Source: a bacterium
GTDB taxonomy: Bacteria; Electryoneota; Electryoneia; Electryoneales; Electryoneaceae
Direction of reading: 5' to 3'
Length of the DNA: 64,000 nucleotides
Assembly: GCA_043801585.1 (NCBI GenBank)
Contig: JAZDLX010000184.1
Coordinates: forward strand, 10,811 to 74,810
The notes beneath the pieces are model-generated. The model was not told the DNA's origin and made no database searches. It saw only the letters and a program-made list of their open reading frames with translations. Below are positions 38,868-55,096 of this stretch, piece after piece (the first letter of the stretch is position 1; each line of letters starts with the position of its first letter). Position numbers and translations under genes: made by a program.

Positions 38868-40478
38868 TTACTGTTCCGTTGGCAAGTAAGTATTTGCATC
38901 CGTTCGGATATAGCGGAGCAACCGATTGTTCTCCGTGTCGGAAATGTAGACAACACCCTCCGAGGTGGCGACTCCCGTAGGTCCACTGAGGATCGGCCAC
39001 AGGACTTTCACCGTGGAATCTGCCGCCACTGAAAGGTCGAACATCGTGTCTTGCTGGGCGATATAGGTTTGCAAAACGGGGGGATTCAGCAGATCCGAGT
39101 ACGCAAGATCGAGAGATTGCAGGACGCTGGCGAAGGATTGTGCGGAATCCAGCAAAACCGTAGTAGTCCTTGCGGAAAGAAATCCCACGAGGTCCGGGTT
39201 CAAAACAGCGTCCAACTCGTCTCCCCGTTGCGCCAGGTAATCATCCAGTAACTCGCCGGCATTCAGGTCGATAAATTCCGGTTCGGCGGCAACCTCACGA
39301 AATTTGAAACCATTCGGAAAGAACGCCGTCACCCGATTCTGTCTTTGATCCGCAACGTAGATCAATCCAAGACCACGGGCATCCCGTTCGCCCACGGCAA
39401 CCGACATCGGTCTGCTGAAATAATTCAGTTTCAGCAGTTGCGGTTCACCCTCTTCCGTGACCGAAATATCAAAATACCAGTTCGATCCCGTTCCCGTGAC
39501 TTTCTGAACTTTGAAGTTGCCTGCTGACTGCGCGAAGAAAATCGAAGTCGAACTTCCACCACCCTGTGTGACGAGACTGGTCGGAGAGTTTGCCGATCCC
39601 CGCCCCTGTCCAGCACCCACAGCAACAGCATGGTGATTACCAAGATATGTATAGAAGACTACTCCGTTATCGAGAACAAGCAAACGCTTGGGCAGCACCG
39701 ATATTTCAACGATACGATCGTCCTGTTCATCGGTGAAGTAGATCATATGCGAATTGGCGCCCCCTGCGGCGACATCAGTAAGTTTCGGTTTTGCTGCCGT
39801 TCCGATTGCGTAGGAATGATCTACATAGAAGAGATAAGGATTCGTTACAGATGCCAGTGAATCCGGGTCGGTCGTGGAAGTGTAATCGGCGACCACATAA
39901 TTCTGGGCATCGAACATACCAAGCTGCTGATAGAGAGGCGTTGAATTGTCAAGGACTACAGTATCCTCGGTTGCTGGGTTCACAAAGGTGACCGTCTGAA
40001 TCAACGCCTGAATACCTGTCTGGGCGGCATACTGGTTCCAGCAATAGATTTTGTCGGTCCCATTCACCATGAAGAGGTTCAGCTTGGTATCCTGACCAAT
40101 TCCCCTCGGAGCATTCGACGTATCCGTCACCGAAGTGAACAGATTATCCCTGACTGTGGATCCAGTGGTTGTCAATTGAACCACGTGACCATTGGTGTTT
40201 CCGTCCACCTCGGTAAAATCCACTACATACATAAAACCATCTGGGCCGATTAAAAGATCGGCTGGATTTGTCCATGTGTAGCCGTGGGCTGCATCCCAAT
40301 CGGGAGAAAGACGAACGAAACTCGTATCGTTTGCACCGAAGTCCTCAACCTTGTTTTCGATCGCGGTCGGCAACGCGGGGTGATCTCCGCATCCCGTCAT
40401 CATCAGTCCGGTCATCAGCAGAACCGCCAGGCTGATCATCGATGCGTTGGCAAATCGTATGGTATAATGCCGCATCAT
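38868..40478 (-). CDS. Hypothetical lipoprotein, beta-propeller / NHL-repeat-like
   Basis: Lipobox LMMTG-C-GDH. It has recurrent propeller-like strands (GFMYVVDF, LIYVADQRQNRV, GVVYISDTENNRLLRY). It is the last gene of the TonB-receptor operon, with a 14-nt gap to the upstream gene. Confidence 0.55.
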   Translation of the reverse strand: MMRHYTIRFANASMISLAVLLMTGLMMTGCGDHPALPTAIENKVEDFGANDTSFVRLSPDWDAAHGYTWTNPADLLIGPDGFMYVVDFTEVDGNTNGHVVQLTTTGSTVRDNLFTSVTDTSNAPRGIGQDTKLNLFMVNGTDKIYCWNQYAAQTGIQALIQTVTFVNPATEDTVVLDNSTPLYQQLGMFDAQNYVVADYTSTTDPDSLASVTNPYLFYVDHSYAIGTAAKPKLTDVAAGGANSHMIYFTDEQDDRIVEISVLPKRLLVLDNGVVFYTYLGNHHAVAVGAGQGRGSANSPTSLVTQGGGSSTSIFFAQSAGNFKVQKVTGTGSNWYFDISVTEEGEPQLLKLNYFSRPMSVAVGERDARGLGLIYVADQRQNRVTAFFPNGFKFREVAAEPEFIDLNAGELLDDYLAQRGDELDAVLNPDLVGFLSARTTTVLLDSAQSFASVLQSLDLAYSDLLNPPVLQTYIAQQDTMFDLSVAADSTVKVLWPILSGPTGVATSEGVVYISDTENNRLLRYIRTDANTYLPTEQ

Positions 40479-40492
40479 TGGCTCGGTCGTCC

Positions 40493-41620
40493 TTAGAAGG
40501 AAAATTCCAGGCTCAAACGTGTCACCTGATCCAACAATCCGAATTCCGTATAACTGACGTCCACACTCATCGCCTTTGTACTGAAAGGCAGTCGTAAACC
40601 TGCGCCGACCGTCCAGGGATCCTCATCCGTATTCGCCTTGAGACCGCCGCGAATGTAGAATTGCCCGGCGAATGAATACTCCGCGCCAGTGACAAAGTTC
40701 TCCGAATTGTCTACAGGATGGTTCAACTGGAAGGAAGCAAGCAATCTGTGGGGACCGCTGGCAAACAACGTCATCGCGGCACCCACGCGAAATTCGGTTG
40801 GAGGACTGAATTCCGTGAAACCCGTCTCAACAATGTCACCGTTGGGGTCTGGCGCAAGGAAACTCCCCTTCGGACTGGCATTGGGACCAAAGTGCATCAA
40901 CGCCACACCGATTCGCAGATCGCGGTAGCCTGTCCAGTAATAGGTGCCGATATCGAACATCACGTTGTCCATCTGGGTATCGGCAAGGGTCTCACGAACA
41001 CCCTTGAGCGTGATCCCCCACGAGAAGTTCTGGGTCATTTCCCAGGCGAACGTTGCGCCGATCTGCACGTCGCCGTAACTGTAATACTCGCCTGTGCCAT
41101 CCGGGTGGTATTCCGTGGTGATTTCCTGGTCCGGTGCCTGCAAGCTGATGGCGGACACACCGATCGCACCAATGCTGATCGGCATCACCGCGCTGACGGC
41201 GCTGTAGCTAAGGTCACCAATCCATTTGAAACTGACCAATCCCACGCTGTAACGTCCGCCGGAAAGCCTGTTGATTCCCGTTCTCGGTCCCTTGACCCCC
41301 TCGGCAGGACGCTGGGGATCCACGGTGTAAGCGCCGTTCCAGCGGTTGTAAATCTGCGCGATCCCCCCCGGATTCCAGAAGGAAGCAAATGCATCGTTGG
41401 CAATCGCTACATAGGCACCGCCGAGTCCTTCGGCACGGGAACCAACCGGAATCTTGAGGAAAGTCATCGCCGAAGTGCCGACACGCTGATCACCGAAGTT
41501 CGGGAAAAGACTCTGAGCCTGGGCGGACGGTAGCGCCATCACAAGAACCAACAGGGCAACAATACCTGCCAGTATTTTGATGTTCGCAGTCATTGCGTTT
41601 TTCACGTTTCTGCGTCCCAT
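40493..41620 (-). CDS. PorV/PorQ-family-like outer-membrane beta-barrel
   Basis: Signal peptide (ILAGIVALLVLVMALPSAQA). The N-terminal motif is GSRAEGLGGAYVAIANDAFASFWNPGGIAQI. The sequence has an alternating beta-strand character and a C-terminal ...SLEFSF. I chose the start at 41620 (SD GGTGAGG), 2 nt after the receptor stop; an alternative start is 41593. Confidence 0.55.
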   Translation of the reverse strand: MGRRNVKNAMTANIKILAGIVALLVLVMALPSAQAQSLFPNFGDQRVGTSAMTFLKIPVGSRAEGLGGAYVAIANDAFASFWNPGGIAQIYNRWNGAYTVDPQRPAEGVKGPRTGINRLSGGRYSVGLVSFKWIGDLSYSAVSAVMPISIGAIGVSAISLQAPDQEITTEYHPDGTGEYYSYGDVQIGATFAWEMTQNFSWGITLKGVRETLADTQMDNVMFDIGTYYWTGYRDLRIGVALMHFGPNASPKGSFLAPDPNGDIVETGFTEFSPPTEFRVGAAMTLFASGPHRLLASFQLNHPVDNSENFVTGAEYSFAGQFYIRGGLKANTDEDPWTVGAGLRLPFSTKAMSVDVSYTEFGLLDQVTRLSLEFSF

Positions 41621-41622
41621 GC

Positions 41623-44385
41623 TCAGAACCTCACCGAAGTGCCGAAAAATACCTGTCGAGGTGCTTTGTACCGGCCGGGATCGACGAGAATGAAGCCCTG
41701 CGCGTTTTCCCATGACACCGGTGCCGGATCACCTCTCTCATAGGGATGACCGGTAAGTGCATTGATCTGGTTCGGCACTTTGAAATCAAATGCGTTCAAC
41801 GCCTCAATGAAGAACCGCACACTGGTCCTTTGGGCAAGAGGTATCTCTTTGTACAGCTTGATATCCACGGTATTCCACCACGGCGCCAGCTCGCTGTACC
41901 GCTCACCCGATTCCTGATAGTCCTGGCCTTCGTTGGTGAGTACGATCGGGGTATAACGTTTGCCTGTCGAAAGATCCCACCGCACGCTGCCACCCCAGTT
42001 CGTCGGCCAATTAATGCCGAACCAGTGTGGAGGGCTGTTTGGAGGAACCCTCAACCAGACCGTCAGGCCAAGCCGGATGGGGGTATCCCAGGCGAGGTAT
42101 TCCTCACCCAGTGTCTTCTCCTGGATGTGGGTATCCGCAGCAGCCTGAATCGCCGCCGCAGCGCTTGAGCTCTTCCCCGTCGCTATCTGGTACGCGAAGT
42201 CCACATTCCCCGACCAGTAGGTTCCCTGCCGCGCCCGGAAACGCATCTCCAGGCCGCGTACACGCGCATAGTCCTGGTTGAAATATTGATAGTACGAGAT
42301 GTTGCCGAGACGCGGGTTCGAGCTTGTCACCTGGAACGAAGTGGCGTAATCGTAAAGGTCCTTGTAAAACGCGGAGATCTCGAGCACCTGGTTGCCCGTG
42401 AACCGGTGCTTGATACCCATCTCGTAGGACACGGTTGTCTGGGGATTCAGGTTCGGATTTCCGAAAAGCTGATAGGTGCTCGGGCTGTAGGATCTCAGCT
42501 TGCTGAAGACGTATGCGTACTTGGGCCGCTGGCTGAAATGCCCGTAGTTGAAAAAGAGCACATCCGAATCCGTCACCGGGTGGCTGACGCCGAGGCGGGG
42601 GCTCAAGTGGGATTTGATGCGACGACCAAGAATCTCGCTCGTCTCATCCATGTAAAGCTGACGCGCCGCATCGGTCAGAGTGATCACATTCGGATCGGCG
42701 ATCGCGTCCTCCACGTACTTCCCCGGATTCCACCAATCGAAGCGGAGGCCGACGTTCGCGATCATCCCCTTGAACTCAATCTTGTCCTGGGCGTAGAACG
42801 TGCCCGCTTCCGACATCGCGGAATACATATCATAATCACCGCCGAGGTCGGTGGATGCAACCCATGGATCATGGACTGTCAAGGATTGCAGTTTTGTCTG
42901 TTCGTACTCGATACCGATCTTCACCAGATTCCGGCTGTTCGCCTGACTGGTGAGTTTCCACTTCAACTGAAAGGTGTCGTTGTAGTGATCGTGGTAGGTA
43001 TCACCGTTTCCGACATCCCACAGGCCGTCACCCGTTTTTGTGAGGATTTCGCCCAGATTGCCGACATCGTAGAAAACCGGAAGGTTGTCAACCGGCTGGG
43101 TGTAATCGGTGTAATACTTCCCCAGCGGCGCACTTGTCACTCTGTTGTAGAAATTGCCCAGGGTCAATTCATAAAAGGTCTTTCTCGACAGAGTATGGGT
43201 GATGTTCAAACCGTGCTGAATGCCTTCACGCGAGATTGTATTGTACTGGGAGAGAATATCCATGTACTCCAGCGGGAAATATTTTTTATCCTCCACCACC
43301 GCGTCGAAGTATCCCTGATTGATCTGAAGACTCCTGCCGAAGTTATATGAAATTTTGAACGTAGGAATTGGTTTGTAGGTGTACTTCGCCATGATTGAAT
43401 AATTGTTTTCTTCGCGAAGTGCAAAGGGATCCCATTGGTTTCGTATCGGAACGAGTTCGCCTGAAGCATTCGGGAGATAAGTGTCCGAGACATACCCGTA
43501 TCCATTCAAGAAAATCGAAGACTTACCGGGTACGTCCAGCCCGATCGATTTCAGAGCACCGCTGGTGATCGGGTCGGGACCGCCAAGCGAAAATTCGACA
43601 TTGTTCGTATTCTGGTGCCGGGAGGGCCAACCAGAGAAATTGTCGGTTTTCGTCTGAAAACTCCCTTCCCACTCGTCGCCGCCTTCCTTGGTCTCCACGT
43701 TGACGAGGCCCGACATCGCCTGGCCGTATTCCGCGTTGAAACCGCCCGTGATCACTTCGATTTCCTTGACGGCTTCCGCGGAGATGTAAACGCCCAACCC
43801 CTGTCCGCTGATGGGATCCTTAACAGACAAGTTGTCGATGATGTACATGTTTTCGTCGGCCCGGCCTCCGCGAATGTGTACATCGCTGTTGTCCTTGACC
43901 ACTCCCACCTGCTGGCCGATGACGTCGTTCAGCCCTTCGACGACGAGTTCGTTGATCTCCTTGCTGTTTATCGTGCGCGAGGTGGCTGTCTGATCCACAT
44001 CGAGCAAAGGTCGTTCGCCGATTATGACAATCTCCTGACCCAGCGAGAGCACGGTGGGCTCGAGGGCGATGTCCACGGTCAGGATTTCATCACCCTCGAT
44101 CCGCAGATCGGTGTTAAGGTACAATTTATACCCGATGGAACTGGCCTGAAGATCGTAGCTTCCCGGGTTGACAGCCATGATGACATAGTTGCCGTCAAGG
44201 TCCGTTGAAGCGCCCTTGTAGGTGCCCTTCAGAATGATGTTCACGCCAACCAGCGGTTCGCCTGTCTGGGCGTTGGTTATCGAGCCCATGATTCGGCCGG
44301 CGAAAGCTGGGATCGCCGCAACCATCAATATGGAAGCCAACAGCAGAACAATTGCGGCGCGTGCAGTCACAATTCTCCTATTCAT
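41623..44385 (-). CDS. TonB-dependent outer-membrane receptor with an N-terminal carboxypeptidase-regulatory-like domain
   Basis: 920 aa. After the signal peptide comes GRIMGSITNAQTGEPLVGVNIILKGT...DLDGNYVI (a CarboxypepD_reg-like domain). Plug motifs follow (IRGGRADENMYIIDNLSVKDP, ITGGFNAEYGQAMSG), then a long beta-barrel ending ...GTSVRF. Confidence 0.85.
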   Translation of the reverse strand: MNRRIVTARAAIVLLLASILMVAAIPAFAGRIMGSITNAQTGEPLVGVNIILKGTYKGASTDLDGNYVIMAVNPGSYDLQASSIGYKLYLNTDLRIEGDEILTVDIALEPTVLSLGQEIVIIGERPLLDVDQTATSRTINSKEINELVVEGLNDVIGQQVGVVKDNSDVHIRGGRADENMYIIDNLSVKDPISGQGLGVYISAEAVKEIEVITGGFNAEYGQAMSGLVNVETKEGGDEWEGSFQTKTDNFSGWPSRHQNTNNVEFSLGGPDPITSGALKSIGLDVPGKSSIFLNGYGYVSDTYLPNASGELVPIRNQWDPFALREENNYSIMAKYTYKPIPTFKISYNFGRSLQINQGYFDAVVEDKKYFPLEYMDILSQYNTISREGIQHGLNITHTLSRKTFYELTLGNFYNRVTSAPLGKYYTDYTQPVDNLPVFYDVGNLGEILTKTGDGLWDVGNGDTYHDHYNDTFQLKWKLTSQANSRNLVKIGIEYEQTKLQSLTVHDPWVASTDLGGDYDMYSAMSEAGTFYAQDKIEFKGMIANVGLRFDWWNPGKYVEDAIADPNVITLTDAARQLYMDETSEILGRRIKSHLSPRLGVSHPVTDSDVLFFNYGHFSQRPKYAYVFSKLRSYSPSTYQLFGNPNLNPQTTVSYEMGIKHRFTGNQVLEISAFYKDLYDYATSFQVTSSNPRLGNISYYQYFNQDYARVRGLEMRFRARQGTYWSGNVDFAYQIATGKSSSAAAAIQAAADTHIQEKTLGEEYLAWDTPIRLGLTVWLRVPPNSPPHWFGINWPTNWGGSVRWDLSTGKRYTPIVLTNEGQDYQESGERYSELAPWWNTVDIKLYKEIPLAQRTSVRFFIEALNAFDFKVPNQINALTGHPYERGDPAPVSWENAQGFILVDPGRYKAPRQVFFGTSVRF

Positions 44386-45895
44386 CGAACACCACCTGGA
44401 TGAATCTGCCTACAATCGCGGGGTCTTTGATCGTCTCCAAAGGTACCGTTAACAGCGTGTACGATTTGTCAACCCTGCGAACGCAGACAATCGGTGTCCC
44501 GCTGTACTGCGGAGGACTTTTCACGCTGGGATCAAGGCGGTAGAGAATTTCGATCCCGGGTTTTTCAGCGAGGCCAATCCAGACGCGACTTACCAATTCG
44601 TCCAGCATCATCGTCGGCAGCCCGGTTCCTTCTTCAGGCACAAAGTACACGGTGTCCGCTGCTGATGTGTAGACACGGGGCCGACTCAAATCATAGTTGA
44701 TTGCGTACGTGCTGTCCGACAAATCGAGAACCATCCCGGTGTCCACGGTCATCGTCGTTAAAAGCATTCGGTTGCCGGGGGTATTGATAAACCCGTACAT
44801 GGAGTTGAAAGCCTGCCGCAGCAGAGGTGTGCCATAGAAGGAATACCAGAGTACCCGCTTGAATTTGAGCAGCGTTTCCGAAATATCGACGGCGACATAG
44901 GGCAATTCAGTGCCCAGTTCCCAGGTGCTGTACACATCGCCTTCCTCGCCACCGTACAGGGAATCGAAAATGGCGCGGTAGAAATCCAGATGCACGTTCC
45001 CTTCATCGAGATAGTAGTCGTCCACAATCAGATAATCGCCTGCCGGTTGTTTCACCACCCACTTCAACGGATCGCTGGCAACATGAGAATCCGGGAAATG
45101 AATCGTCGGAGACTGGAATCCGGCAAGGTCTTCCACTTTCAGCCAGAAGTTGTGTTCTCCCGTTTCAAGATCACGAAGTGTTACGGTATTGTAGATCGCG
45201 TCCATCTCCTGCCAGGCGGTATCGCCCGGAAGCGGATCGAGGGCATAGTAAACTTTTTCAATGGTCTGGTAGCCATCGGGGTCCGTAGCATCCCAGGCAA
45301 ACGACCGAACATTGAAGGTTTTGTAAGTCTTGCCAGCATAGGATACCGGATTCGACGCAAGACGGAACGACACGTCCGGCCGGCTGTTGAAGACAGGAAA
45401 GGTGATCGTCGCAGGATCCGGATCGATCGCGCCTTCGTTGTCAACCGCCAGGACCTGGAATGTGAATTCCGCGGTCGGGGTGCGAATCGGGAGAGTGAAC
45501 TCCTTTTGCTCAAGCGTTGTCGAATTCCAGGTGGAATCGTTCACCTGCTGCCAAGAGTCGTCATACCATTGAGTGTCGACGACGATCCCGAGAGTATCAG
45601 TGACAAGCAATCCCCAGCGATACTCGTAGCTGACGATCCATCCATCAGAATCTTCAGCCCACCAATGCATCACCTTGTTACTTGAACTTGCAACCGGTAA
45701 TACTCCCGGATCCGGTACAATCGACAAGTAGGTCTGCGGAGGACGATTATCCGAGCTTCCCAGTACATTCCCGGTCCGTCCATCCGCCCCAACCGGGTCG
45801 AGATTCTGACAGCCGAGCTGAACCAGCGCAATCAATGCCAAGGTCAGCACCGCTGCTAAAACCACCAAACCCGTCTTGCGTGCACTCATCTCCAA
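44378..45895 (-). CDS. Hypothetical lipoprotein (beta-rich, unknown function)
   Basis: Lipobox LVQLG-C-QNL. It has two D-x-D-G-containing Ig-like segments (EDSDGWIVSYEYRW, DATDPDGYQTIEKVYY). It overlaps the receptor start by 8 nt. No catalytic motif was recognised. Confidence 0.55.
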   Translation of the reverse strand: MEMSARKTGLVVLAAVLTLALIALVQLGCQNLDPVGADGRTGNVLGSSDNRPPQTYLSIVPDPGVLPVASSSNKVMHWWAEDSDGWIVSYEYRWGLLVTDTLGIVVDTQWYDDSWQQVNDSTWNSTTLEQKEFTLPIRTPTAEFTFQVLAVDNEGAIDPDPATITFPVFNSRPDVSFRLASNPVSYAGKTYKTFNVRSFAWDATDPDGYQTIEKVYYALDPLPGDTAWQEMDAIYNTVTLRDLETGEHNFWLKVEDLAGFQSPTIHFPDSHVASDPLKWVVKQPAGDYLIVDDYYLDEGNVHLDFYRAIFDSLYGGEEGDVYSTWELGTELPYVAVDISETLLKFKRVLWYSFYGTPLLRQAFNSMYGFINTPGNRMLLTTMTVDTGMVLDLSDSTYAINYDLSRPRVYTSAADTVYFVPEEGTGLPTMMLDELVSRVWIGLAEKPGIEILYRLDPSVKSPPQYSGTPIVCVRRVDKSYTLLTVPLETIKDPAIVGRFIQVVFDE

Positions 45896-45933
45896 CAGTC
45901 CTCCGAACCGGACAGAACGACTTTCCGATCTTC

Positions 45934-45983
45934 AAAAGAATCCCCTCCCCACGCATCAATCGTGATGTTGATGCGTGGGGAGG
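45934..45983 (-). terminator. Terminator-like 16-bp perfect hairpin after the 968-aa gene
   Basis: CCTCCCCACGCATCAA (45944-45959) is the exact reverse complement of TTGATGCGTGGGGAGG (45968-45983). On the minus strand the stem is followed by GGATTCTTTTGAAG. Confidence 0.6.
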
Positions 45984-46014
45984 TTGAGAATCGAATCAAT
46001 GTCAGATGCTTCTG

Positions 46015-48921
46015 TTACTTGATCAGAACCATCTTCTGCATCTTGTGGAAATCAGCCGCATCGAAGCGCAGGAAGTAAACGCCCGAAGCCACCGGCATAT
46101 TCGAATCGTTCACACCGTGCCACATCACCGTATGCTGTCCAGCGACCATCGGCTGATCAATCAGCGTCCGGACCTTCTGGCCCAGCATGTTGTAAACAAT
46201 CACCTTGACAGCAGCATTCTTGGGAAGCTGGAAGGCGACCGTGGTGGATGGGTTGAACGGGTTCGGATAGACGGGATACAGCGCGAAGACCTTCGGCAGA
46301 CCGGCCTCTGCGACAGATGCTTGCGGTCCCAGGAGGCTCTCCACATCGTACCAGAGACGTGGCTCGAGCTTCCAGGTGCCATAGCTGTACAACCAGATGC
46401 CCTGGATCCACGCCGGGCTGGTGTTCGATGTACCACCCGCGAGACCGCTGAACCAGGCCTTGATCGTCGAATTGTTGGCGGCATAGTTGATCATGTCATC
46501 ATCGACAAGGAACCGGTTGCCGCCGGCATCCTCAAAGGTCCAGTCGTACGAGTTCTTCTGCACGAAGGTCGGGTTCAGGATCTTCACAGCCTGGCTCTCA
46601 TAGGGCTCAGGTGTGCCGGTCAGATCCGTAACGGAAACTTCGTGGAAGGTCAATGCATTGCCGGAGCTGTTGACTGTGAAGTTCGTGCCAACGCTCTTCA
46701 GACGGGTGTTGTTGACGAACTTGCTGCCACCCGTGATTTCGTTGACGACACCGGTGACGGTAATCGCATCACCCGCTTCAACGGCACTTCCAACAGCCAT
46801 GTCAGTGCTGTTGATGTGGACCAGAATTGAGTTCCATGAAGGATCCGTACCTGCTTGGAGATAGTACGCGCAACCTTCCGTATAGCCGTACTGGAAAGCA
46901 ATGTCATTGCTGTCGATAACGACACCCGTTACGGTGACGCTGTAACCTTCGTAACGGCTGCTTCCGCCGGCATACGGTGTCCACTGAAGCTGTGCAATCG
47001 TCAACGGGCTGGCTGACACGTGATACCCGTTGAGGAACTTGCTGGTGTCACTCGGCTCAAGGGTTGTAACGACCGATAGGTCTTCAAAGGTGTTGAATGC
47101 CTCTGAGAAGTACCAGACATCGGCACCCTCGGACTGCGCCGGGATTATGGCCACGAAGGAGTCGCCTTCAACGTTGGTCATCTTGACGCCTGTAAAGTCG
47201 CCGGTTTCACCGACACGGTACCAGACGAACGCGCTGTCAACCTGCACATCGTCAATGATGTTGTACGCGATACCAACCGCATCCGAAGGAGTCGGAGCAG
47301 CGATGTTGCGGCCACCACTGACGAAGAGCGGCGGAGCCTCGCCGAGAACGATGTCGATCAATGGAAACTTGGGAGCAACCTTGTAGGTCCAGTGCGATCC
47401 ATCGACATCACCAAGAGAACCGAAGTGATCATAGACCCAGCCGACGACACTGTCGATGATGGTGTTTACTGGCGGTTGACCAAAGGTATCCCAGTTTGAC
47501 GCTTCCGGTGAACCGGTAAAGTCGGAGTCGTCGTCGATACCGAATCCGGGTGTGGCGTCCGGAGTAGGATCATCCACAACGAATTTCATGTTGTCGAGAC
47601 CCGGGGTATTGTTCACAACCTGGACACCCTTCAGGTAGACAAACGCCGTGCCCCACTTCTCGATTTTACGGCCGTCACGGACATCGGCAACAGTCACCTG
47701 AACTGGTGCGGGGAGCGGGTGATCGAACGTTGGGACTTCGATCGGCTCCGTGATGAACAGCTCGGTCATGTTGCCTTCACCGGTGATGTACTCGGAGATG
47801 TACCCGGTGACAATCACCTCATCGCCATCAAAGAGATACGGAAATGCCGTGGAGTCAGGATCATAGGAGAGCACCGAACTCCAGGGCTGCTCGACGGGAT
47901 CGGTATCGAGAGCATATACCGCATCGGACATGATGAACTTCACGCCAGCACCGGCGTAGTTGAGGCCTGTGGAACTGGTCACAACACCACGCACGGTGAC
48001 TGTATCCTGTCTGCCGGTAACTGTTCCATCAAAGAATGCGTAACGTGCGTTCGATGAGTAGGACTGATCCAGCATGTAGGTGTTGCCGCTTCCATCCGTC
48101 TGGATCTTCATGTCGTACGGACGGACCTGCTGGAACCACGAGAACTGGGTATACCAGCCGTTGTCAGGATCTACGGCAACCTTCAGGTCATGGCTGATTT
48201 CGGGAAGGATGTGGTACCCGTAAGAGACGTTGACAACACCGCGAACGTAATCGAAGGGCTGGTCCAGCAATCGCTTGTGGAAATAGCCGTACGTGGTGTT
48301 TTGCGGGTTGTCAATCAGCACAGTGCTGTCGCCGTCAGTGACAGACCATTCACCGTATCCGGCATCAGCATTGTCACATACCACATCATTCACTTGGACC
48401 AGGACACCTTCCCACTGCTCAGCGCCTGTACGGTTGTAAAACGGGGTCAGGTCCGCTGCAGGAACAACCGTGTAAGCGCACGCAGCAGGCAGATCAGTCC
48501 AGTCCACAACGTCCGAGAGAACAGTGACATCCGTTGCGGGTGTCATCGGCGAAATTTCAGTGATGTAGTTGCCGTTCGTGTCACTGCCGGATTTGTACTC
48601 CGTCACCTTGCCTCGAACACTGACCTTCGTGCCGAAAGCAAAATCAAAACCCGCAGCGCTTTTGTAGATGTAGACGCCATGCCAGGCGCCTGCGGAGTCT
48701 GCCATCCAGAAACCGCGTCCATCGGGATTCATGGAGAGTGGTTCAAACGTAACCCAACCCTCTACAGTTACGGTGTCGCCCATCAGGGTACTTCGATCTT
48801 CAGTCACTGGGTCGGCAACGAACTGTACCGTTTTGATGGGTGTAATACCCGGCCATTCCGTAGCGTACGTCGCGGAAACAGCCAACAGCATCACAACCAT
48901 CAGAATGATAACTTTACGCAT
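46015..48921 (-). CDS. Very large secreted protein with three tandem OB-like double-barrel modules, an Ig-like insert and a T9SS C-terminal sorting domain
   Basis: Signal peptide MRKVIILMVVMLLAVSATYA. The motif G-x-x-V-T-V-x-G-x-V recurs (GDTVTVEGWV, GTKVSVRGKV, DTVTVRGVV, GDEVIVTGYI, YSVTVTGVV, GDAITVTGVV). The C-terminus reads VYPNPFNPSTTVAFQLP...VIVYNMLGQKV...GVYFLRF...MVLIK. Confidence 0.75.
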   Translation of the reverse strand: MRKVIILMVVMLLAVSATYATEWPGITPIKTVQFVADPVTEDRSTLMGDTVTVEGWVTFEPLSMNPDGRGFWMADSAGAWHGVYIYKSAAGFDFAFGTKVSVRGKVTEYKSGSDTNGNYITEISPMTPATDVTVLSDVVDWTDLPAACAYTVVPAADLTPFYNRTGAEQWEGVLVQVNDVVCDNADAGYGEWSVTDGDSTVLIDNPQNTTYGYFHKRLLDQPFDYVRGVVNVSYGYHILPEISHDLKVAVDPDNGWYTQFSWFQQVRPYDMKIQTDGSGNTYMLDQSYSSNARYAFFDGTVTGRQDTVTVRGVVTSSTGLNYAGAGVKFIMSDAVYALDTDPVEQPWSSVLSYDPDSTAFPYLFDGDEVIVTGYISEYITGEGNMTELFITEPIEVPTFDHPLPAPVQVTVADVRDGRKIEKWGTAFVYLKGVQVVNNTPGLDNMKFVVDDPTPDATPGFGIDDDSDFTGSPEASNWDTFGQPPVNTIIDSVVGWVYDHFGSLGDVDGSHWTYKVAPKFPLIDIVLGEAPPLFVSGGRNIAAPTPSDAVGIAYNIIDDVQVDSAFVWYRVGETGDFTGVKMTNVEGDSFVAIIPAQSEGADVWYFSEAFNTFEDLSVVTTLEPSDTSKFLNGYHVSASPLTIAQLQWTPYAGGSSRYEGYSVTVTGVVIDSNDIAFQYGYTEGCAYYLQAGTDPSWNSILVHINSTDMAVGSAVEAGDAITVTGVVNEITGGSKFVNNTRLKSVGTNFTVNSSGNALTFHEVSVTDLTGTPEPYESQAVKILNPTFVQKNSYDWTFEDAGGNRFLVDDDMINYAANNSTIKAWFSGLAGGTSNTSPAWIQGIWLYSYGTWKLEPRLWYDVESLLGPQASVAEAGLPKVFALYPVYPNPFNPSTTVAFQLPKNAAVKVIVYNMLGQKVRTLIDQPMVAGQHTVMWHGVNDSNMPVASGVYFLRFDAADFHKMQKMVLIK

Positions 48922-48999
48922 GTTTCTTTATACCTCCCTGTTGGTGAGGATTGTATCTCTCACTTGTCCGTTACACCTGTCCCGGTTGCACCGGGCTCT

Positions 49000-51483
49000 T
49001 TATTTGATCACCAGAAAACGTCCCATCTTCTTGTCTCCGGAATCGGTGTCCTTGACGACGTAGATGTAGAGTCCCGTTGCGATTTCCTGTCCTTTCTCCG
49101 TCAGCAGATCCCAGGCGTGTTCACCACCGGCGAATGCGCTTCTTTCACCGGTGGAAGACGATCCTCCGATTCGCGCGACATCCTGAGCGCTATAGGTGGC
49201 GGCATCATGTTCGAACCGGTCGATTCGTTCGCCGGCGGTATTGAAGATAGTCACCTCGCAATGCTGGGGGAGATAACGGAACCAGATCAACCGCTCATCC
49301 TGATTCAAACCGTCCCATGCAGCGCGTCCCCGATATGGATTCGGGTACACGCTGATACGTTGATCGTTGCTGGCGACCGGCCGTGTGCCGGGATAGGCGA
49401 ATGTACGGTTTGCGGTTCTATTGGACTCAAGACTCTGCAGGTTGTTCGCCGGGTCGCCCCGGTCATATGCCGTCACCGAGTAATAGAGCTCACGCGGCCA
49501 GCCGTTTTTGACGCCGTAATTGACCCATCGGTAGGTCGGTTCAAATCCAAACTGTGATTGAATTGCGCTTCTAATCGAATCCTCCTGTTCAACCGTCAAC
49601 TCCCCGCTGGCGACGAGGGAGTCGAGATGGATGGAGGCCATACCGAGGTCATACCCAACGTGGGTGTTGTCATCATCCGTGGGATCGACGTCATAATTGA
49701 CATCCCAATCCGCCAGCAGGGTCCACTCGCCGGTTACACCTTCACTGGTGGTCTTCGGAGAGGAATATACCCGATAGCCTTCAAAGTCGATCTTGTTGCT
49801 GATCGGATCGACGGCAAATTCCGGAGCATTGTTCCAGTAGAGTGTTACCTGACGGTCCGCGGGCACGATGGCGAGTGATGGAGCAGGAGGTGCACCTGGC
49901 AAAATGTAGCGGGTAATTTTTCCATCACCGTCTTTGTCCTCACCCGGATCCAGGATGCCGTTCCCGTTGCGATCTTCGCCATCATAGGCGATCTGTGCCC
50001 ATTCCGCGTTCAGATACAGGTTACTCCGGCGTTCCGCATTGTCATCACCCGTTCCGTTCCAGAGTCCTGCTACAATCGCATAAGCCACCTTGTACCGTTC
50101 GCCGGGAGCAAGGTTAGGCATCGGACCGGTGGAGAGGAAAAGCATCCATGACTGTTGATAATCGCTTGTCGTCGGAAGACGGTTGCCGTCGAGACCGACG
50201 CGCATCACGTTATAGCGATCTTCCTCGGTCTGAGGCATTCCATATTCATCAGGGAATCGCGACCCACCCCACGTCCACTGGTGAAAATAGGCATTCCAAG
50301 TATTCGGTAGAGCTGCAGCATTGACCGGTTCAGCGCCCAATACCTTCACCCCGAGATAACTCTGAGCCCACCCGGCATCCCCGTCAAAATCGAACTGCAT
50401 CGCCAGACGCTTTGAATTGCTGTAAGCGTTCATGTTGTCATACCAGTTCCAACGCCCACCGGGACCACCCTGACTGCTGTAATAATTCGTGTAATTCATA
50501 TTACCAACGGAACCATCCACCCAGACGCCGAAATAGGGATCGGTGATTGCTTTCCCCGTCCAGATCGTGTCGCCATCGGCAAATTCCCGGACAACTCCTG
50601 CGCCATAATTCACTGTCTCGCCGCCAGCTCCCGCGATCCTCATGCCCGTGGGAATGTTCGTCACCGTGTAGTTGAGGATCGTAAAGGCATCCGCGAACGG
50701 ATCGTTCCAGGAGTAGGCTTCGAGATAGACGTGGATACCGAGAGGTTGATGGTACTTGACTGCAACACCAGTCCCCGGAACAATGAGATTGGTGTCGGTA
50801 AAAGCGGTGATCAGGTCCTGGTGACTGACGGCGTTGGGATCGTAAACGGTGGCGTAGGCGGCGTAGGGGTTTGAGGGTGAGGCATCGACGATGGAGCTTC
50901 GGGTGACGACGGAATCCCAAGAGGTCGTTCCAAAGTCCCACTCCCCGTTGACCAACGGGGCGTCGATCGCACCACCAAACGTGATGTACGGGTCTATTGG
51001 ATCGTCTGCGTGCGTCAGGTCAAACCTGCGGTCGATTTCTGCCAGATGCCGGAAAACAGGTGTATCCCTGATCGTCCGTTGTGCCGAGGAGGTGAACTCC
51101 CACCCACCTTCATCGGGCGCAAACACACCATCGTAAACAGCAGTGGTAACGTGTACTTGTCCATCCTTGACACCACCGATCCAGATGCCAGCATAACTGA
51201 AATGTTCGATCTGTTCTTTCGCGATTGTCGTGCGGATTTTGTACATGCAGGAGGGTTGGTCGGGGGTGTTGAATCCCTGGCCAAGAACACCAAAGTTTGT
51301 GATCGTCAAGCCGATGTTTCCGACGCTGGTATTATGCCAGTAATCATCACTGGCCGTCTTCCGTAACGCTTTCCCCTGATCAGCGGCGATGGTCACATTC
51401 GCTGCCAGAATCAGCCCAGCGCCAAAAAACGCCAGTGCAGTACGAACTGGGCTACGAAAGCGATGGATAGGTAAGTGTCTCAC
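49000..51483 (-). CDS. Large secreted protein of unknown function with a Ca-binding-like D-x-D loop, an FN3-like domain and a T9SS C-terminal sorting domain
   Basis: GTG start and signal peptide (ALAFFGAGLILAANVTIAA). Recognisable elements are DGEDRNGNGILDPGEDKDGDGKI (approx 49915-49983), QVTLYWNN...FEGYRVY (FN3-like), and the C-terminal SVYPNPYRG...VTIFNTAGERI...GLYIYVV...GRFLVIK. Confidence 0.7.
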   Translation of the reverse strand: MRHLPIHRFRSPVRTALAFFGAGLILAANVTIAADQGKALRKTASDDYWHNTSVGNIGLTITNFGVLGQGFNTPDQPSCMYKIRTTIAKEQIEHFSYAGIWIGGVKDGQVHVTTAVYDGVFAPDEGGWEFTSSAQRTIRDTPVFRHLAEIDRRFDLTHADDPIDPYITFGGAIDAPLVNGEWDFGTTSWDSVVTRSSIVDASPSNPYAAYATVYDPNAVSHQDLITAFTDTNLIVPGTGVAVKYHQPLGIHVYLEAYSWNDPFADAFTILNYTVTNIPTGMRIAGAGGETVNYGAGVVREFADGDTIWTGKAITDPYFGVWVDGSVGNMNYTNYYSSQGGPGGRWNWYDNMNAYSNSKRLAMQFDFDGDAGWAQSYLGVKVLGAEPVNAAALPNTWNAYFHQWTWGGSRFPDEYGMPQTEEDRYNVMRVGLDGNRLPTTSDYQQSWMLFLSTGPMPNLAPGERYKVAYAIVAGLWNGTGDDNAERRSNLYLNAEWAQIAYDGEDRNGNGILDPGEDKDGDGKITRYILPGAPPAPSLAIVPADRQVTLYWNNAPEFAVDPISNKIDFEGYRVYSSPKTTSEGVTGEWTLLADWDVNYDVDPTDDDNTHVGYDLGMASIHLDSLVASGELTVEQEDSIRSAIQSQFGFEPTYRWVNYGVKNGWPRELYYSVTAYDRGDPANNLQSLESNRTANRTFAYPGTRPVASNDQRISVYPNPYRGRAAWDGLNQDERLIWFRYLPQHCEVTIFNTAGERIDRFEHDAATYSAQDVARIGGSSSTGERSAFAGGEHAWDLLTEKGQEIATGLYIYVVKDTDSGDKKMGRFLVIK

Positions 51484-51819
51484 GGTCGTAGCAGGTCCTC
51501 ACGTTGCTTCCTGAACGGATGCCAATGATTCGACCAGATCGACTTCAGGAGTACAAACCCCTCTGCAGCCGACCTTGCGTCAAGCTGCCGAACTCTCGTT
51601 AAGCTCTCATGAGGAAAAGGTTTAGGTCTCCCGAGAAGCTAACGAATCTTCGGAACCGTGGGAACTGGATCATGTTCCACATTTCACGGCTTCGGAGAAG
51701 ATAGGGGCCTTAATCAGACAGCTCCAAGGTCGAGGAGAGTCGTTTTTTAAGGTAGGTATTCCAAACCCTAAGCCCCTGTCTCTGAGAGATTTGGCCCCAT
51801 TTTTAATAACATCACAAGG

Positions 51820-53127
51820 TTATCGAATCAATGTCACACGTCGAAGATCCACACTCCCGCCGCTGACAGTTCTCAACAGATAGACACCGCTGGAAAGTTT
51901 GTCCGCCGGGAGGGTCAAATGATGAGCTCCGGCGGTGAGATACCCCGCCTGCATCTCCCAGACCTGACGTCCGAGGAGATTGTACAGCGCAAGATGGACC
52001 TGGCCGGATTGCCTCAGGTTCAGACTCACACTGGCTGTGCTGTTGAAGGGATTCGGATAGACTGAAACGATCATGAAATGTGAAGGGAGGTTCTGCACGT
52101 AATCGTCCCGCACACCTGAGATCCCATCCACCGCAATGTCCATGACGACCGGGAGGTGATCCGAGGCATAATAGAGGGCGTCAGCCACTTCTCGGCGAAC
52201 TGCAAGGTTTTCCGGATAGTTGATATTTAAGTTAAAGTGCTGCCCATCATTACCGAAAGCGTGGTAGCTTTCCGGCAAGTAATCAAGGCCGGTGCTGTCG
52301 AAGAATTCCGGTGACGCGAGGATGAAGTCGAAACGGTCGTCAAGGCCCCCTGTCGCACCTTCATCATAGAGACCTGTTGAAGAGGTGCGTGTGCTTTGGG
52401 TATGAACATCCGCAAACGCACTGTTGTTGGTCCACGATCCCACCCGATTGATAGGATCTCGGAAAAGATCGGTTGACGTTGCGGCTTGCCAGGCTGTCCC
52501 GCTTGCACGATAGAGATTAAAGTCGCCACAGAAAATTAGATTGCTCCCCACCAGAGATTTGTTGTTGATCTGTGTGATCATTGCGTTGATCTGCTGCGTC
52601 CTCGTCGACTCATCTGCACTATTATTACTTGCTTTCAGGTGCGTGATGAACACGTACATCGTATCAAACAAGTCGTCGTGCTGGAAATTCACCTGAAATT
52701 GTACGATATCGCGAATCGGTGCGGTGATCAGGTAGATCGGCCCCAGGGAAATCCCGCGATCCGTACGATAGTAAAGCTGAACATCATAGGAGGATGTCGG
52801 TGACAGGAGTGACTTTGCCCACTTGCCGGGGGCGATAACGTCGAGGACGTTGCTAAGGAACCGAGTTGATCCCGTACCACTCCAAACTTCTTCCACAGAA
52901 ATGATGTCTGGATCAATCGTGGAGATGACCGTCCGATAATAGGGCTCACGTTCATCCTCGTGATGATCGGCAACGCCGTCATAAGTGTAGTTCAAGATGT
53001 TCCACGCCATAAAGCGGAGCGTTTCCGTCTGTGCCTGAACAGAGTGGATAAAGGTGAGGGAAACCAGCGTGATCAGCAAGCCGCCTGAGATCCAACTCTT
53101 CAGAAACCGTTTCGTTGCACCGTGCAT
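51820..53127 (-). CDS. Secreted endonuclease/exonuclease/phosphatase (EEP)-family hydrolase with a T9SS C-terminal sorting domain
   Basis: EEP motifs appear in order: RFMAWNILNY, DIISVEEV, FITHLKA, FCGDFN, SDHLPVVMDI. The C-terminus reads VYPNPFNSTASVSLNL...LALYNLLGRQV...GVYLLRT...VTLIR. I chose the start at Met 53127 (MHGATKRFLKSWISGGLLITLVSLTFIHSVQA). Confidence 0.8.
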   Translation of the reverse strand: MHGATKRFLKSWISGGLLITLVSLTFIHSVQAQTETLRFMAWNILNYTYDGVADHHEDEREPYYRTVISTIDPDIISVEEVWSGTGSTRFLSNVLDVIAPGKWAKSLLSPTSSYDVQLYYRTDRGISLGPIYLITAPIRDIVQFQVNFQHDDLFDTMYVFITHLKASNNSADESTRTQQINAMITQINNKSLVGSNLIFCGDFNLYRASGTAWQAATSTDLFRDPINRVGSWTNNSAFADVHTQSTRTSSTGLYDEGATGGLDDRFDFILASPEFFDSTGLDYLPESYHAFGNDGQHFNLNINYPENLAVRREVADALYYASDHLPVVMDIAVDGISGVRDDYVQNLPSHFMIVSVYPNPFNSTASVSLNLRQSGQVHLALYNLLGRQVWEMQAGYLTAGAHHLTLPADKLSSGVYLLRTVSGGSVDLRRVTLIR

Positions 53128-53311
53128 GGTACGTTCTCCCAAGGCTCTTTCGTACGCACTTCAGTATGGCAAAGATCATGCAGCATGATACGGAGCACAC
53201 CCATCAATGCTGCCTTGCCAGACGTCGATGGGGAGTCACCAGTAGTAGTCACAATCTACCAGTGTTGACGAGTCGTCATCGAATCGTCCAGCAATCGGTG
53301 CCCCTGAACGA

Positions 53312-53343
53312 TAAAAAAAAACCGCAACCGATCTGGTTGCGGT
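53312..53343 (-). terminator. Intrinsic terminator of the cold-shock gene
   Basis: On the minus strand, ACCGCAACC-AGATC-GGTTGCGGT is followed by T9 (the plus-strand A-run at 53313-53321), 24 nt after the csp stop. Confidence 0.8.
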
Positions 53344-53366
53344 CATGTCGTCAGGACGAAGCTATG

Positions 53367-53570
53367 CTACTTGCCTATCCGCTTGACATTCGTAGCGGCC
53401 GGGCCTTTCTGCCCCTGCTCCAGGTCGAATTCTACTTCCTCTCCTTCGGCGAGCGTCTTGAAACCGTCTCCCTGAATCGAGCTGAAGTGAACGAATACAT
53501 CACGACCGTCTTCCGCTTCAATAAAACCGAATCCCTTGGACTCGTTGAACCACTTAACTTTACCCTGCAT
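53367..53570 (-). CDS. csp: Cold-shock protein (CspA family)
   Basis: [32 protein letters not shown] carries the RNP1 motif (KGFGFI) and the RNP2 motif (VFVHF). It is 67 aa from Met 53570. Confidence 0.93.
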
Positions 53571-54037
53571 GCTTTTCTCAACTTCCTGCAATAATTTGTA
53601 CCTCCGACAACTGCTGCCGGAGACTATCGGGGCTTAACTTAACGGATTTTCAAGCGGATACCAACTGAAATCTCGAAAACACCTCAATGCCTCCGAGGTC
53701 TCTCATTTCTTCGAGACAGAGTGTCCAGCAGAATCGGATGCTTTCAGCTCAAGTCCTTCCTTTCCGTGTCAAATCAATAATAATCAAGTTATTGAAAGAA
53801 ATACTCCCCGTTCGAGCCGTTCCAGCCGGCAGTCGCGCACCATCCACTCCCCTCGCCCCGGCACCTGTTCCGGAAAGATGGCAGGTATCCCTTCGTACAC
53901 CGGAACAGTCGATGTTCTCAGCGCCGGCAGGTGCGTCGAGACCTTCGCCAAACAGCTCGATCCGCTCTCCGCGAAACAGGACGTCCGCCTGGCAAACTGC
54001 GCCGGGGCTGACAACCCTGCCTCCTCGAAGCAGCAGA

Positions 54038-55096
54038 TCACTCACCACCCTCCCCGTTGAACGTCAGGGACGCCGCGGAACGGCGATGTGTTCGGAGGTG
54101 GTGGATGATTTCAGAGATGATGCTTATCGCGATTTCGGGGACAGTTTCCGCCTTGAGGTCGAGACCGACAGGAACATGGATGCGATCGAGCGTCTGCTTC
54201 GGATTTCCCTCTTTCTCCAGCGTTTTTGCGATGAGGCTCCATTTGCGCCGACTGCTCATCAACCCGAGGTAGGAAATCTCCTGCTCCAACAGCCAACGAA
54301 GCATCTGGAGATCATGCTGATGTCCGCGCGTGGCGATGACGACGTAATCGTCCGGGGCGATCTTCGCCCGGGAGGCGAGATGATCGTAGGAACCGCAGTC
54401 GATACGCACGGCGTGCGGGAAGCGTTCGGCGTTCGCAAGGTCCGGACGGTCGTCATAAATGCAAACGTCCAGCTCGATGAAATGTGCCACCTCAGCGAGT
54501 GCCTGACCGACGTGACCCGCACCAAGAATATGCAGCCGTGGAGTGGGTTTCAGATATTCAATGAGAAATGACGTAGCTTCTTCTTCAGCGGCGACACTGC
54601 GCTGCTCGTTCTTTGCCCTTTCGATCAACTTCTTCACTTTTTCGGGTAGTTCCGGGGCAGGGTCCCTGCCGTGCAGCACGGTCCGTTCGATGGAAACCGG
54701 ATCTCCCTGAATGATGGTCAGCACCGTGACCGTTTCCGACTTGTCAAACGCCTCGGAGAGTGATTTCCAGCAGGCAAGCACTTCACGGGTAACAGGTTCA
54801 ATCAGCATGCGTGTCCAGCCACCGCAGATTCCCGCCTCGCCCTCAACATCGTTCGAGCTCATGTCGAAATCCGCCAACACCGGCCGCCCGTGATCCAGAA
54901 CTTCAAGAGCCCGTTGAATCACCAGGTTTTCCATCGATCCGCCGCCAACGGTTCCGAACGTACGGCCGCCATCAAGCACGAGCATCGATGGGTAGTCCTT
55001 GCGTGGAACAGACCCTTTCCAGGCCACCTGCGAACAGAGCACTGCCGGGGTGGCTTCGTCCCACGAAATCAGTTTGTTCAAAAGATGCTTATCCAT
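54038..55096 (-). CDS. xdhC: XdhC/CoxI-family molybdenum-hydroxylase maturation factor
   Basis: It has an N-terminal XdhC_CoxI-like region (GTVGGGSMENLVIQRALEVL) and a Rossmann-like C-domain (LHILGAGHVGQALAEVAHFIELDVCIYDDRPD ... VVIATRGHQHD ... YLGLMSSRRK ... PVGLDLKAETVPEIAISIISEI). Confidence 0.8.
   Translation of the reverse strand: MDKHLLNKLISWDEATPAVLCSQVAWKGSVPRKDYPSMLVLDGGRTFGTVGGGSMENLVIQRALEVLDHGRPVLADFDMSSNDVEGEAGICGGWTRMLIEPVTREVLACWKSLSEAFDKSETVTVLTIIQGDPVSIERTVLHGRDPAPELPEKVKKLIERAKNEQRSVAAEEEATSFLIEYLKPTPRLHILGAGHVGQALAEVAHFIELDVCIYDDRPDLANAERFPHAVRIDCGSYDHLASRAKIAPDDYVVIATRGHQHDLQMLRWLLEQEISYLGLMSSRRKWSLIAKTLEKEGNPKQTLDRIHVPVGLDLKAETVPEIAISIISEIIHHLRTHRRSAASLTFNGEGGE

Follow-up and report, generated by a model that had tools for sequence, protein, structure and literature searches.

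Seven consecutive genes on the minus strand of the 64,000-nucleotide (nt) stretch of bacterial DNA analysed here (the window) encode exported proteins, and the question that this locus (positions 38868-53142) raises is whether the seven open reading frames (ORFs) form one system and, if so, what that system captures. A first-pass annotation of the window had proposed a capture-and-import system for extracellular nucleic acids or organophosphates. Our analysis answers the first part of the question plainly: what lies here is a single copy of an outer-membrane cassette that has been conserved within the Fibrobacterota-Chlorobiota-Bacteroidota (FCB) superphylum, and it belongs with the transporter-centred polymer-utilisation loci. 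For the second part, the best reading is that the cassette captures extracellular nucleic acid (DNA or RNA), cuts it and imports the products by a TonB-driven route, to which, on the sequence evidence given below, we assign somewhat better than an even chance.

The ORFs, the two intergenic gaps and the hairpin were all recovered exactly where the first-pass annotation had placed them. Direct reading of all seven N-termini, rather than a predictor, identified a signal peptide or a lipobox on every protein, and domains were assigned with Pfam and NCBIfam models at their own cut-offs. In the order of transcription, the features are as follows.

51820-53142, minus strand: EEP440, a secreted phosphoesterase of the endonuclease/exonuclease/phosphatase (EEP) superfamily, probably a nuclease, with a type IX secretion system (T9SS) C-terminal domain (CTD), type A
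51484-51819, minus strand: 336-nt gap 5' of the 827-aa gene, its size taken from the ORF coordinates
49000-51483, minus strand: U827, 827 aa, a protein without a Pfam or NCBIfam model
49003-49359, minus strand: U-type CTD of U827, with the pattern VYPNPY...W...F..LP..C.I.I...H...WDL...GLYIY...G.FLVIK
46015-48921, minus strand: OB968, a T9SS type A cargo protein with repeated DUF5689-like oligonucleotide/oligosaccharide-binding (OB) modules
45944-45983, minus strand: hairpin 3' of the OB968 stop codon, with a 16-bp GC-rich stem, an 8-nt loop and a T-rich tail
44378-45895, minus strand: LP505, a lipoprotein of a family without a Pfam model
41623-44385, minus strand: TBDR920, a TonB-dependent transporter of the outer membrane with an N-terminal carboxypeptidase-regulatory-like domain
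40493-41713, minus strand: PorV406, a 14-strand-type barrel of the PorV/PorQ family
38868-40478, minus strand: NHL536, a six-bladed NHL beta-propeller lipoprotein, the product of the final core gene

A conserved six-gene core

The LP505 gene is present in a single copy in the window's own genome (G000, 92% complete; contigs of this genome are given C-numbers and cassette loci of other genomes L-numbers) and served to locate the cassette elsewhere. Of the 15 genomes in the window's family, 13 contain it, as do four of the six genomes of one other family in the phylum. In the 20-kb regions around LP505 from ten relatives, tblastn recovered the order U827-OB968-LP505-TBDR-PorV-NHL, in the same orientation, in all ten, at identities down to 28-52%. 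A scan with one genome per species yielded 80 loci, labelled Marinimicrobia/Neomarinimicrobiota, KSB1, Calditrichaeota, Fidelibacterota, LCP-89 (a name also borne by the metagenome-assembled genome (MAG) 'candidate division LCP-89 bacterium B3_LCP', which belongs to the same GTDB phylum as the window's organism, itself an uncultured FCB lineage) and others. All six core genes occur in one order and orientation in 49 of these loci, from at least five differently labelled lineages, and no alternative gene order was detected among the 80; one full-length locus (L047) has no match to U827, and the remaining incomplete loci end inside the cassette. Unbiased clustering of 796 ORFs from the loci recovered the six core families in 50-73 loci each, with the EEP family next (28 loci). 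In addition, among 151 sampled genomes of the SAR406 phylum (that of a Neomarinimicrobiota MAG), 101 encode LP505 at E <= 1e-30, nearly always once. The first-pass annotation had named lack of synteny in related genomes as what would refute its system idea, and the outcome is strongly in favour of that idea.

The opposite possibility, that the seven genes are neighbouring envelope genes without a joint function, could draw on the terminator-like hairpin and the 336-nt gap that divide the block. Nevertheless, the arrangement persists across phyla at identities as low as 25-40%, four of the genes overlap, and the genome has no further members of two of the families, so that we consider such chance neighbourhood very improbable indeed.

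The hairpin is itself a conserved feature of the cassette and, as far as we could determine from the literature, a new one. The stem at 45983-45944 was recovered with a z-score of -3.9, and the 78-nt and 336-nt gaps reported with it are exact. A strong hairpin lies directly 3' of the stop codon of the OB gene in 16 of the 18 loci that were folded, and an unbroken stem of at least 9 bp (median 12 bp) is present at this junction in 44 of 53 loci, compared with 1/22, 1/21, 2/26 and 4/25 at the other junctions. The stems have no common sequence across loci. We interpret the hairpin as an intra-cassette terminator, attenuator or mRNA stabiliser. Downstream of it, the median gaps at the LP505-TBDR, TBDR-PorV and PorV-NHL junctions are -4, -1 and -1 nt, respectively (in the window, the LP505 gene overlaps the receptor gene by 8 nt), and because these gaps are negative, the arrangement of the four genes points to translational coupling. 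The cassette thus consists of two blocks, the secreted pair U827 and OB968 and the four coupled membrane genes, with the hairpin between them. A scan for sigma-70 promoters found 12 sites against 10.5 in shuffled sequences, that is, no enrichment; the 336-nt gap may be the promoter region of the core cassette.

Two observations on the distribution of the cassette deserve mention. In 26-27 SAR406 loci (within L037-L098; for example, L045:16372-18134), the NHL gene is followed, across overlapping junctions, by two more conserved genes, whose products measure about 321 and about 256 aa; a weak match to YjbH is all that Pfam gives for the two, and they may be lineage-specific extra members of the cassette. 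Loci L048, L052, L054, L059 and L068 come from MAGs deposited as 'uncultured Cytophagia bacterium' and contain KSB1-like cassette copies. The deposited label looks doubtful: the phylum of one such MAG (G045) has few DUF5689 matches, all of them in large ORFs.

The case for nucleic acid as the substrate

The link to nucleic acids runs primarily through OB968. This protein carries a type A CTD (TIGR04183, 37.7 bits), and its residues 54-179 form a module like the N-terminal one of the extracellular nucleases ExeM/NucH; the corresponding full-length family model (NF033681) is matched at 36.6 bits, over model positions 2-110 only, against a cut-off of 300. Among the orthologues, 20 of 39 match DUF5689 (PF18942) and 30 of 39 match the tRNA_anti-codon OB-fold nucleic-acid-binding domain. 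The DUF5689 matches span the full model and reach 31 bits (cut-off 28.6), with three of the ten inspected above the cut-off, and the position of the matching module varies between orthologues. Furthermore, the family profile matches the N-terminus of a solved EEP nuclease (9sf8) with E 1e-5. Taken together, these matches lead us to predict that OB968 is built from three DUF5689-like OB double modules and acts as a nucleic-acid-binding surface protein, in accord with the earlier description of OB-like modules of the kind seen in extracellular nucleases. Some SAR406 loci encode a longer OB protein (1345-1465 aa) that has gained a lamin-tail domain (LTD) and shows a weak cytochrome-c-like match at its N-terminus (PF13442, E 4.5e-4; L039:5790-9824).

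DUF5689 is the domain found in DdbD, which is predicted to bind DNA as a partner of the transporter DdbC. Both belong to the ddbABCDEF system of Bacteroides thetaiotaomicron, which is required for DNA depletion by this bacterium (bioRxiv 10.1101/2025.03.18.642099; PMC12478041). It is because OB968 orthologues match this domain that we favour nucleic acid as the substrate of the cassette. The two systems appear alike in that one locus combines a TonB-dependent transporter with an OB protein, of DUF5689 in ddb and of a DUF5689-like family here, and with secreted enzymes, nucleases in ddb and a probable nuclease here, with a logic like that of polysaccharide utilisation loci (PULs): surface binding, surface cutting, import and periplasmic processing. 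They differ in how the parts are made and delivered. DdbD is a single-module lipoprotein with a signal peptidase II signal (SPII), encoded next to the transporter, and the ddb nucleases are lipoproteins as well, whereas OB968 has three modules, a signal peptidase I signal (SPI) and a T9SS type A CTD, and LP505 is inserted between it and the transporter. The PorV/PorQ-like barrel, U827, LP505 and the NHL lipoprotein have no ddb counterparts, and the cassette encodes a secreted EEP-superfamily enzyme with an intact catalytic set, a predicted nuclease, that is replaced by other phosphoesterases in other lineages.

That enzyme, EEP440, has a type A CTD (TIGR04183, 37.1 bits, cut-off 23). On its own, it scores 20.6 bits against Exo_endo_phos, under the cut-off of 24.5; a profile of 22 orthologues matches the EEP structures of Nocturnin/CCR4 with E 8.8e-9, and the catalytic residues N48, E85, H168, D207, N209, D268/D272, D328 and H329 are invariant among the orthologues. 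Judged by these comparisons, membership in the EEP superfamily is secure and a nuclease activity probable. The SAR406 orthologues add a lamin-tail domain, as in the ExeM/NucH nucleases. Thus, features of ExeM/NucH, namely the N-terminal OB module in OB968 and the combination of EEP and lamin-tail domains in the SAR406 orthologues, recur in the cassette; the difference is that neither cassette protein reaches the cut-off of that family and that two different proteins carry the OB modules and the EEP domain.

The EEP gene is nevertheless an accessory outside the invariant core: 28 of the 80 loci contain it, and its position 5' of U827 is restricted to the window's genus and many of the SAR406 loci. 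The first-pass annotation was right about the fold family and the T9SS domain of this hydrolase, although not in counting its gene with the rest of the system on equal terms. For most of the window's family, the gene between U827 and OB968 is that of a PhoA-type alkaline phosphatase (E 2e-95), which has a signal peptide and no CTD, and in loci of the LCP-89 type, a protein of the metallo-beta-lactamase (MBL) fold with a CTD is encoded 3' of NHL. Of the 51 loci whose U827 gene is complete, 35 contain one of these three genes. As assigned by sequence family, the interchangeable genes all encode phosphoesterases, and the phosphoesterase is a lineage-variable accessory of the cassette. A homologue of the cassette alkaline phosphatase (50% identity) is encoded in G000 on another contig (C28:18247-19557), adjoining a 1094-aa ORF.

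Several observations weigh against the assignment to nucleic acid. The window's own OB968 has no DUF5689 match at E 0.001 or 0.01, and a direct DUF5689 search of the G000 genome was negative as well, so that the link between OB968 and DUF5689 is one by family that rests on orthologues near the gathering threshold and not on this sequence alone. DNA binding by DdbD is itself a structural prediction (bioRxiv 10.1101/2025.03.18.642099; PMC12478041). About one-third of the complete loci, particularly those of the KSB1 type, contain no phosphoesterase within the fetched flanks. Finally, 15 of the 39 OB968 orthologues show weak CBM56 matches, and a Foldseek search with U827 matched its N-domain to N-terminal sandwiches of GH94/GH65/GH15 enzymes, at a TM-score of about 0.2.

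The last two of these points could be taken to mean that what enters through the cassette is a different polymer or an organophosphate: a phosphorylated glycan, material resembling teichoic acid, phospholipid head groups or phytate, for example. The OB and sandwich domains would then serve as carbohydrate or anion binders. In addition, phosphoesters other than nucleic acids are among the substrates of EEP, alkaline phosphatase and MBL enzymes, and no nuclease is seen in the KSB1-type loci. However, no glycoside hydrolase, lyase or peptidase family was detected in the seven proteins or in the scanned recurrent neighbour families, and the best-supported domain links are those to nucleic-acid binders and to ExeM/NucH-type nucleases with an LTD. 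We therefore regard such a substrate as unlikely. The first-pass annotation had itself specified that assignment of the large proteins to glycoside hydrolase or protease families would count against its substrate idea, and none turned up. Its substrate proposal, nucleic acid or organophosphate, gains support at the level of sequence families from the DUF5689/OB-fold family and the phosphoesterase accessories.

If the substrate is DNA, the cassette could alternatively serve the outer-membrane DNA-uptake step of natural transformation and not feeding. In Riemerella anatipestifer, the surface protein RA0C_RS04920, which carries DUF5689, and the transporter RA0C_RS04915, which has a CarboxypepD_reg domain, form a pair that is essential for transformation (PMC8459023). 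A comparable pairing, of a CarboxypepD_reg transporter with a DUF5689-like surface protein, is predicted for the cassette; the Riemerella pair differs in that it serves transformation and has no described PorV-like barrel or T9SS-delivered partners (PMC8459023). The cassette is, moreover, single copy and near-core in SAR406, and ComEC is encoded in G000. However, ComEC is also encoded in 10 of 14 control genomes and accordingly has no discriminating power, and the recurrent accessories, a nuclease, an alkaline phosphatase and an MBL-fold hydrolase, would destroy incoming DNA. A dedicated transformation role thus appears improbable to us, about as much so as the import of another polymer. The two roles need not exclude each other, given that the ddb paper derives one from the other (bioRxiv 10.1101/2025.03.18.642099; PMC12478041).

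A transporter with probable T9SS-delivered partners

The presence of a 920-aa TonB-dependent receptor in the cassette is firmly established, with both the Plug (PF07715, 33.4 bits, cut-off 23.9) and the 22-strand barrel (PF00593, 90.3 bits, cut-off 27) above cut-off and an N-terminal CarboxypepD_reg domain (PF13715) at 58 bits. Identity is 61-90% within the family and 39-52% across phyla. TBDR920 falls under the cut-off for all siderophore and haem subfamilies, and a phmmer search of the PDB returned nothing at E <= 0.001. Its score against the SusC/RagA model (TIGR04056) is 51.2 against a cut-off of 368, and the match covers the N-terminal 205 residues only. SusD (PF07980) has no match anywhere in the genome, while the B. 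thetaiotaomicron control was detected, and none of the seven cassette proteins has a Pfam or NCBIfam match to it. The cassette shares with SusC/SusD PULs a TonB-dependent transporter with surface binders and degradative enzymes and the SusC-like N-terminal CarboxypepD_reg domain, but it has no SusD or carbohydrate-active enzymes, its transporter lies far under the SusC/RagA cut-off, and its partners are delivered by T9SS. We accordingly rejected a SusCD PUL, in agreement with the first-pass annotation.

Two lipoproteins accompany the transporter. The AlphaFold2 model of LP505 (pLDDT 90) contains two FN3-like domains and a C-terminal alpha/beta domain, and its Foldseek matches are dominated by tandem FN3 pairs. 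The lipobox cysteine is invariant in nine close relatives; among 68 members of the family, Pfam gave nothing beyond weak Y_Y_Y/fn3 matches, and the family profile found nothing among PDB sequences at E <= 1. The LP505 start is probably the ATG at 45889 rather than the TTG at 45895. NHL536, for which the first-pass annotation had suggested an NHL/propeller lipoprotein, is single copy and belongs to a family in which all 40 members have the NHL repeat and the cysteine is nearly invariant. Its profile matches the NHL propellers of Pizza, TRIM71, Brat and PknD with E from 1e-36 to 1e-17, consistent with six blades. The NHL domains of TRIM71 and Brat, which are among the nearest solved relatives, bind RNA; we take this as an analogy only for NHL536.

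The PorV-like barrel predicted earlier is borne out by a match to the PorV/PorQ family (NF033709) at 163.3 bits (cut-off 90), together with a weak PDB match to PorV (6h3i). The equivalog models NF033710 and NF033711 give 49.4 against 250 and 39.7 against 220, far under their cut-offs. Of the T9SS machinery, SprA and PorU are encoded in G000. The canonical sortase gene porU (538 bits) occupies C68:6-2447 and is followed by a PorV-like gene at C68:2676-3230 that is cut by the contig end; the N-terminal part of porU apparently lies at C14:8-916. Given the equivalog scores and this separate porU-porV pair, PorV406 was rejected as the cell's own PorV. We predict from sequence comparisons that it is a paralogue of canonical PorV/PorQ that anchors or collects U827. 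The PorV ORF shares 91 nt with the receptor gene, and most orthologues (332-377 aa) have nothing that corresponds to its first 40 residues; as called, it is probably too long at the 5' side, with the real start at the ATG at 41593 (MTANIK...).

U827 is the best-conserved cassette protein after the receptor (48% mean column identity over 50 sequences), with no real Pfam family among its 50 members and nothing among PDB sequences at E <= 1 with the family profile. The AlphaFold2 model (pLDDT 77) comprises a large beta-sandwich N-domain, an acidic calcium-loop segment, an FN3-like domain and a C-terminal sandwich. A glycoside phosphorylase was considered for U827 and rejected, the catalytic (alpha/alpha)6 domain being absent. 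The C-terminal sandwich is matched by Foldseek to PorZ (5m11, 22% identity over 157 columns) and PorU (6za2). The first-pass annotation had assigned T9SS CTDs to EEP440, U827 and OB968; type A domains are indeed present on the first and the last, whereas the type A/B models do not recognise that of U827 and miss it in 47 of 50 orthologues. Nor does the inference of covalent surface attachment stand, as a type A CTD shows T9SS export and not covalent attachment. A hidden Markov model built from seven copies of this U-type domain in G000 scores 130-164 bits for the copies and at most 31 bits for the ordinary CTD proteins, of which there are about 40. Representative clusters with a match to the domain at E <= 0.001 number 1,073, and in full-length hits, the matching part is at the extreme C-terminus. 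U827 is not a standard type A cargo protein, and it is most likely held by the PorV-like barrel.

The model for this relationship is provided by PorQ-PorZ and PorV-PorU, sub-complexes within the T9SS attachment complex of Porphyromonas, in which an uncleaved CTD protein exported by T9SS is held by a barrel of the PorV/PorQ family and the gene pair is adjacent (PMC10947112); in G000, the adjacent pair is porU-porV on C68. By analogy, we would expect the U-type CTD to pair with its PorV-family barrel as PorZ does with PorQ. The difference is that, here, the barrel and the CTD protein are paralogues located inside transporter loci, several per genome, and are not parts of the secretion machine.

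The same layout is common beyond the cassette. Among the seven U-type CTD proteins of G000, four are encoded directly 5' of a PorV-family gene, three of these with a U827-like FN3 region; porU, directly 5' of its porV-like gene, follows the same layout. Two other U-type genes adjoin a gene for a TonB-dependent receptor, as does a weaker tblastn match on C74, at the contig end. The survey also covered five further genomes, of which two belong to the window's family, two to the SAR406 phylum and one carries the label KSB1. Of the 23 non-cassette U-type genes that could be assessed there, 21 either sit directly 5' of a PorV-family gene or have one within about 4 kb, and for 22 of the 23, a Plug domain of a TonB-dependent receptor occurs no further than 9 kb upstream on the same strand. 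Each of these genomes contains 16-30 matches to the PorV family; for the two SAR406-phylum members, 12 of about 14 and 12 of 13 are found 5-10 kb downstream of a Plug, which amounts to approximately half of the transporters. Two paralogous modules of G000, C72:2498-16752 and C181:15883-23763, consist of a TonB-dependent receptor, a U-type CTD protein and a PorV-like barrel in this order, followed on C72 by further large type A CTD proteins, and are probably uptake loci for other substrates. Each genome has 4-6 instances of this layout, and the middle proteins differ among them.

These observations suggest that the cassette is the DNA-specific, near-core member of an undescribed class of TonB-transporter partnering in FCB phyla other than Bacteroidota, in which a T9SS-exported protein with an uncleaved U-type CTD replaces the SusD-type lipoprotein and is collected and held by a PorV/PorQ paralogue of its own, with about half of the transporters in the inspected SAR406 genomes apparently so built. 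We put this forward tentatively, at a little under an even chance. One feature of the cassette speaks against our main reading, in which the barrel holds U827: the U827 gene and the barrel gene are not adjacent, unlike those of the paralogous modules.

The close tie of the transporter to a PorV/PorQ paralogue and T9SS cargo, its lack of fit to any substrate-specific subfamily of TonB-dependent transporters and the near-core, single-copy state of the cassette could also be explained if the cassette built or maintained the cell surface, as an export or anchoring platform with the barrel acting outward. Oar of Myxococcus is reportedly a precedent for a TonB-dependent barrel that acts in this direction. 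However, recurrence of the layout with different middle proteins is the pattern of nutrient-specific uptake loci, and export offers no evident task for the nuclease and phosphatase accessories, which leaves a surface-building function decidedly improbable.

Returning to nucleic-acid harvest, what the sequences show is the gene content, the synteny, the domain families, the recurrent adjacency and the hairpin; we infer the substrate, the protein contacts and the direction of transport as follows. T9SS would export OB968, the EEP nuclease and U827. The modules of OB968 would bind DNA or RNA at the cell surface, where the EEP enzyme, or another phosphoesterase in other lineages, would cut the bound polymer. 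The fragments would pass through TBDR920, working with LP505, NHL536 and the dedicated PorV/PorQ-like barrel. U827 would retain its CTD and be held at the transporter by the barrel, in the way that PorQ holds PorZ, taking the place of the SusD or DdbD lipoproteins of Bacteroidota. The hairpin could set different expression levels for the U827/OB968 pair and the four membrane components.

Borders and broader implications

The cassette is flanked by unrelated operons, an aromatic amino-acid operon on the opposite strand at the left and a molybdenum-hydroxylase operon at the right, and because of this, the cluster borders given by the first-pass annotation are correct. A 10-bp GC hairpin with T8 after it occupies 53320-53344 on the minus strand, in the interval between the EEP gene and the end of the molybdenum-hydroxylase operon (an XdhC-like gene, 54038-55096). 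This hairpin probably terminates the upstream operon and delimits the cluster on its right side. Two plus-strand ORFs in this region, 53687-54571 (294 aa) and 53115-53594 (159 aa), are probably not genes: the larger overlaps the XdhC-like gene on the other strand and has no Pfam family.

Full-text literature searches found the Ddb and Riemerella systems and no description of the cassette or of modules that combine a TonB-dependent receptor with a PorV paralogue. Apart from the hairpin 3' of the OB gene, what appears to be new here is a PorZ/PorU-like CTD, that of U827, which is missed by the type A/B models and is encoded after a TonB receptor gene and before a PorV-like barrel gene in six genomes. 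For annotation pipelines, four of the six core proteins are hypothetical or generically named.

If the partnering class is real, PorV/PorQ paralogues and U-type CTDs would be assembly parts of nutrient transporters and not only of the secretion machine, and the class would underlie much of the polymer uptake in SAR406, KSB1, Calditrichota and their relatives. In the dark ocean, SAR406/Marinisomatota count among the most abundant bacteria, and much phosphorus and nitrogen is present there as dissolved DNA; SAR406 has no cultured model. A single-copy cassette that is present in about two-thirds of the sampled SAR406 genomes and is common to KSB1, Calditrichota, Fidelibacterota and LCP-89 offers a testable candidate for the harvest of nucleic acids by these organisms.

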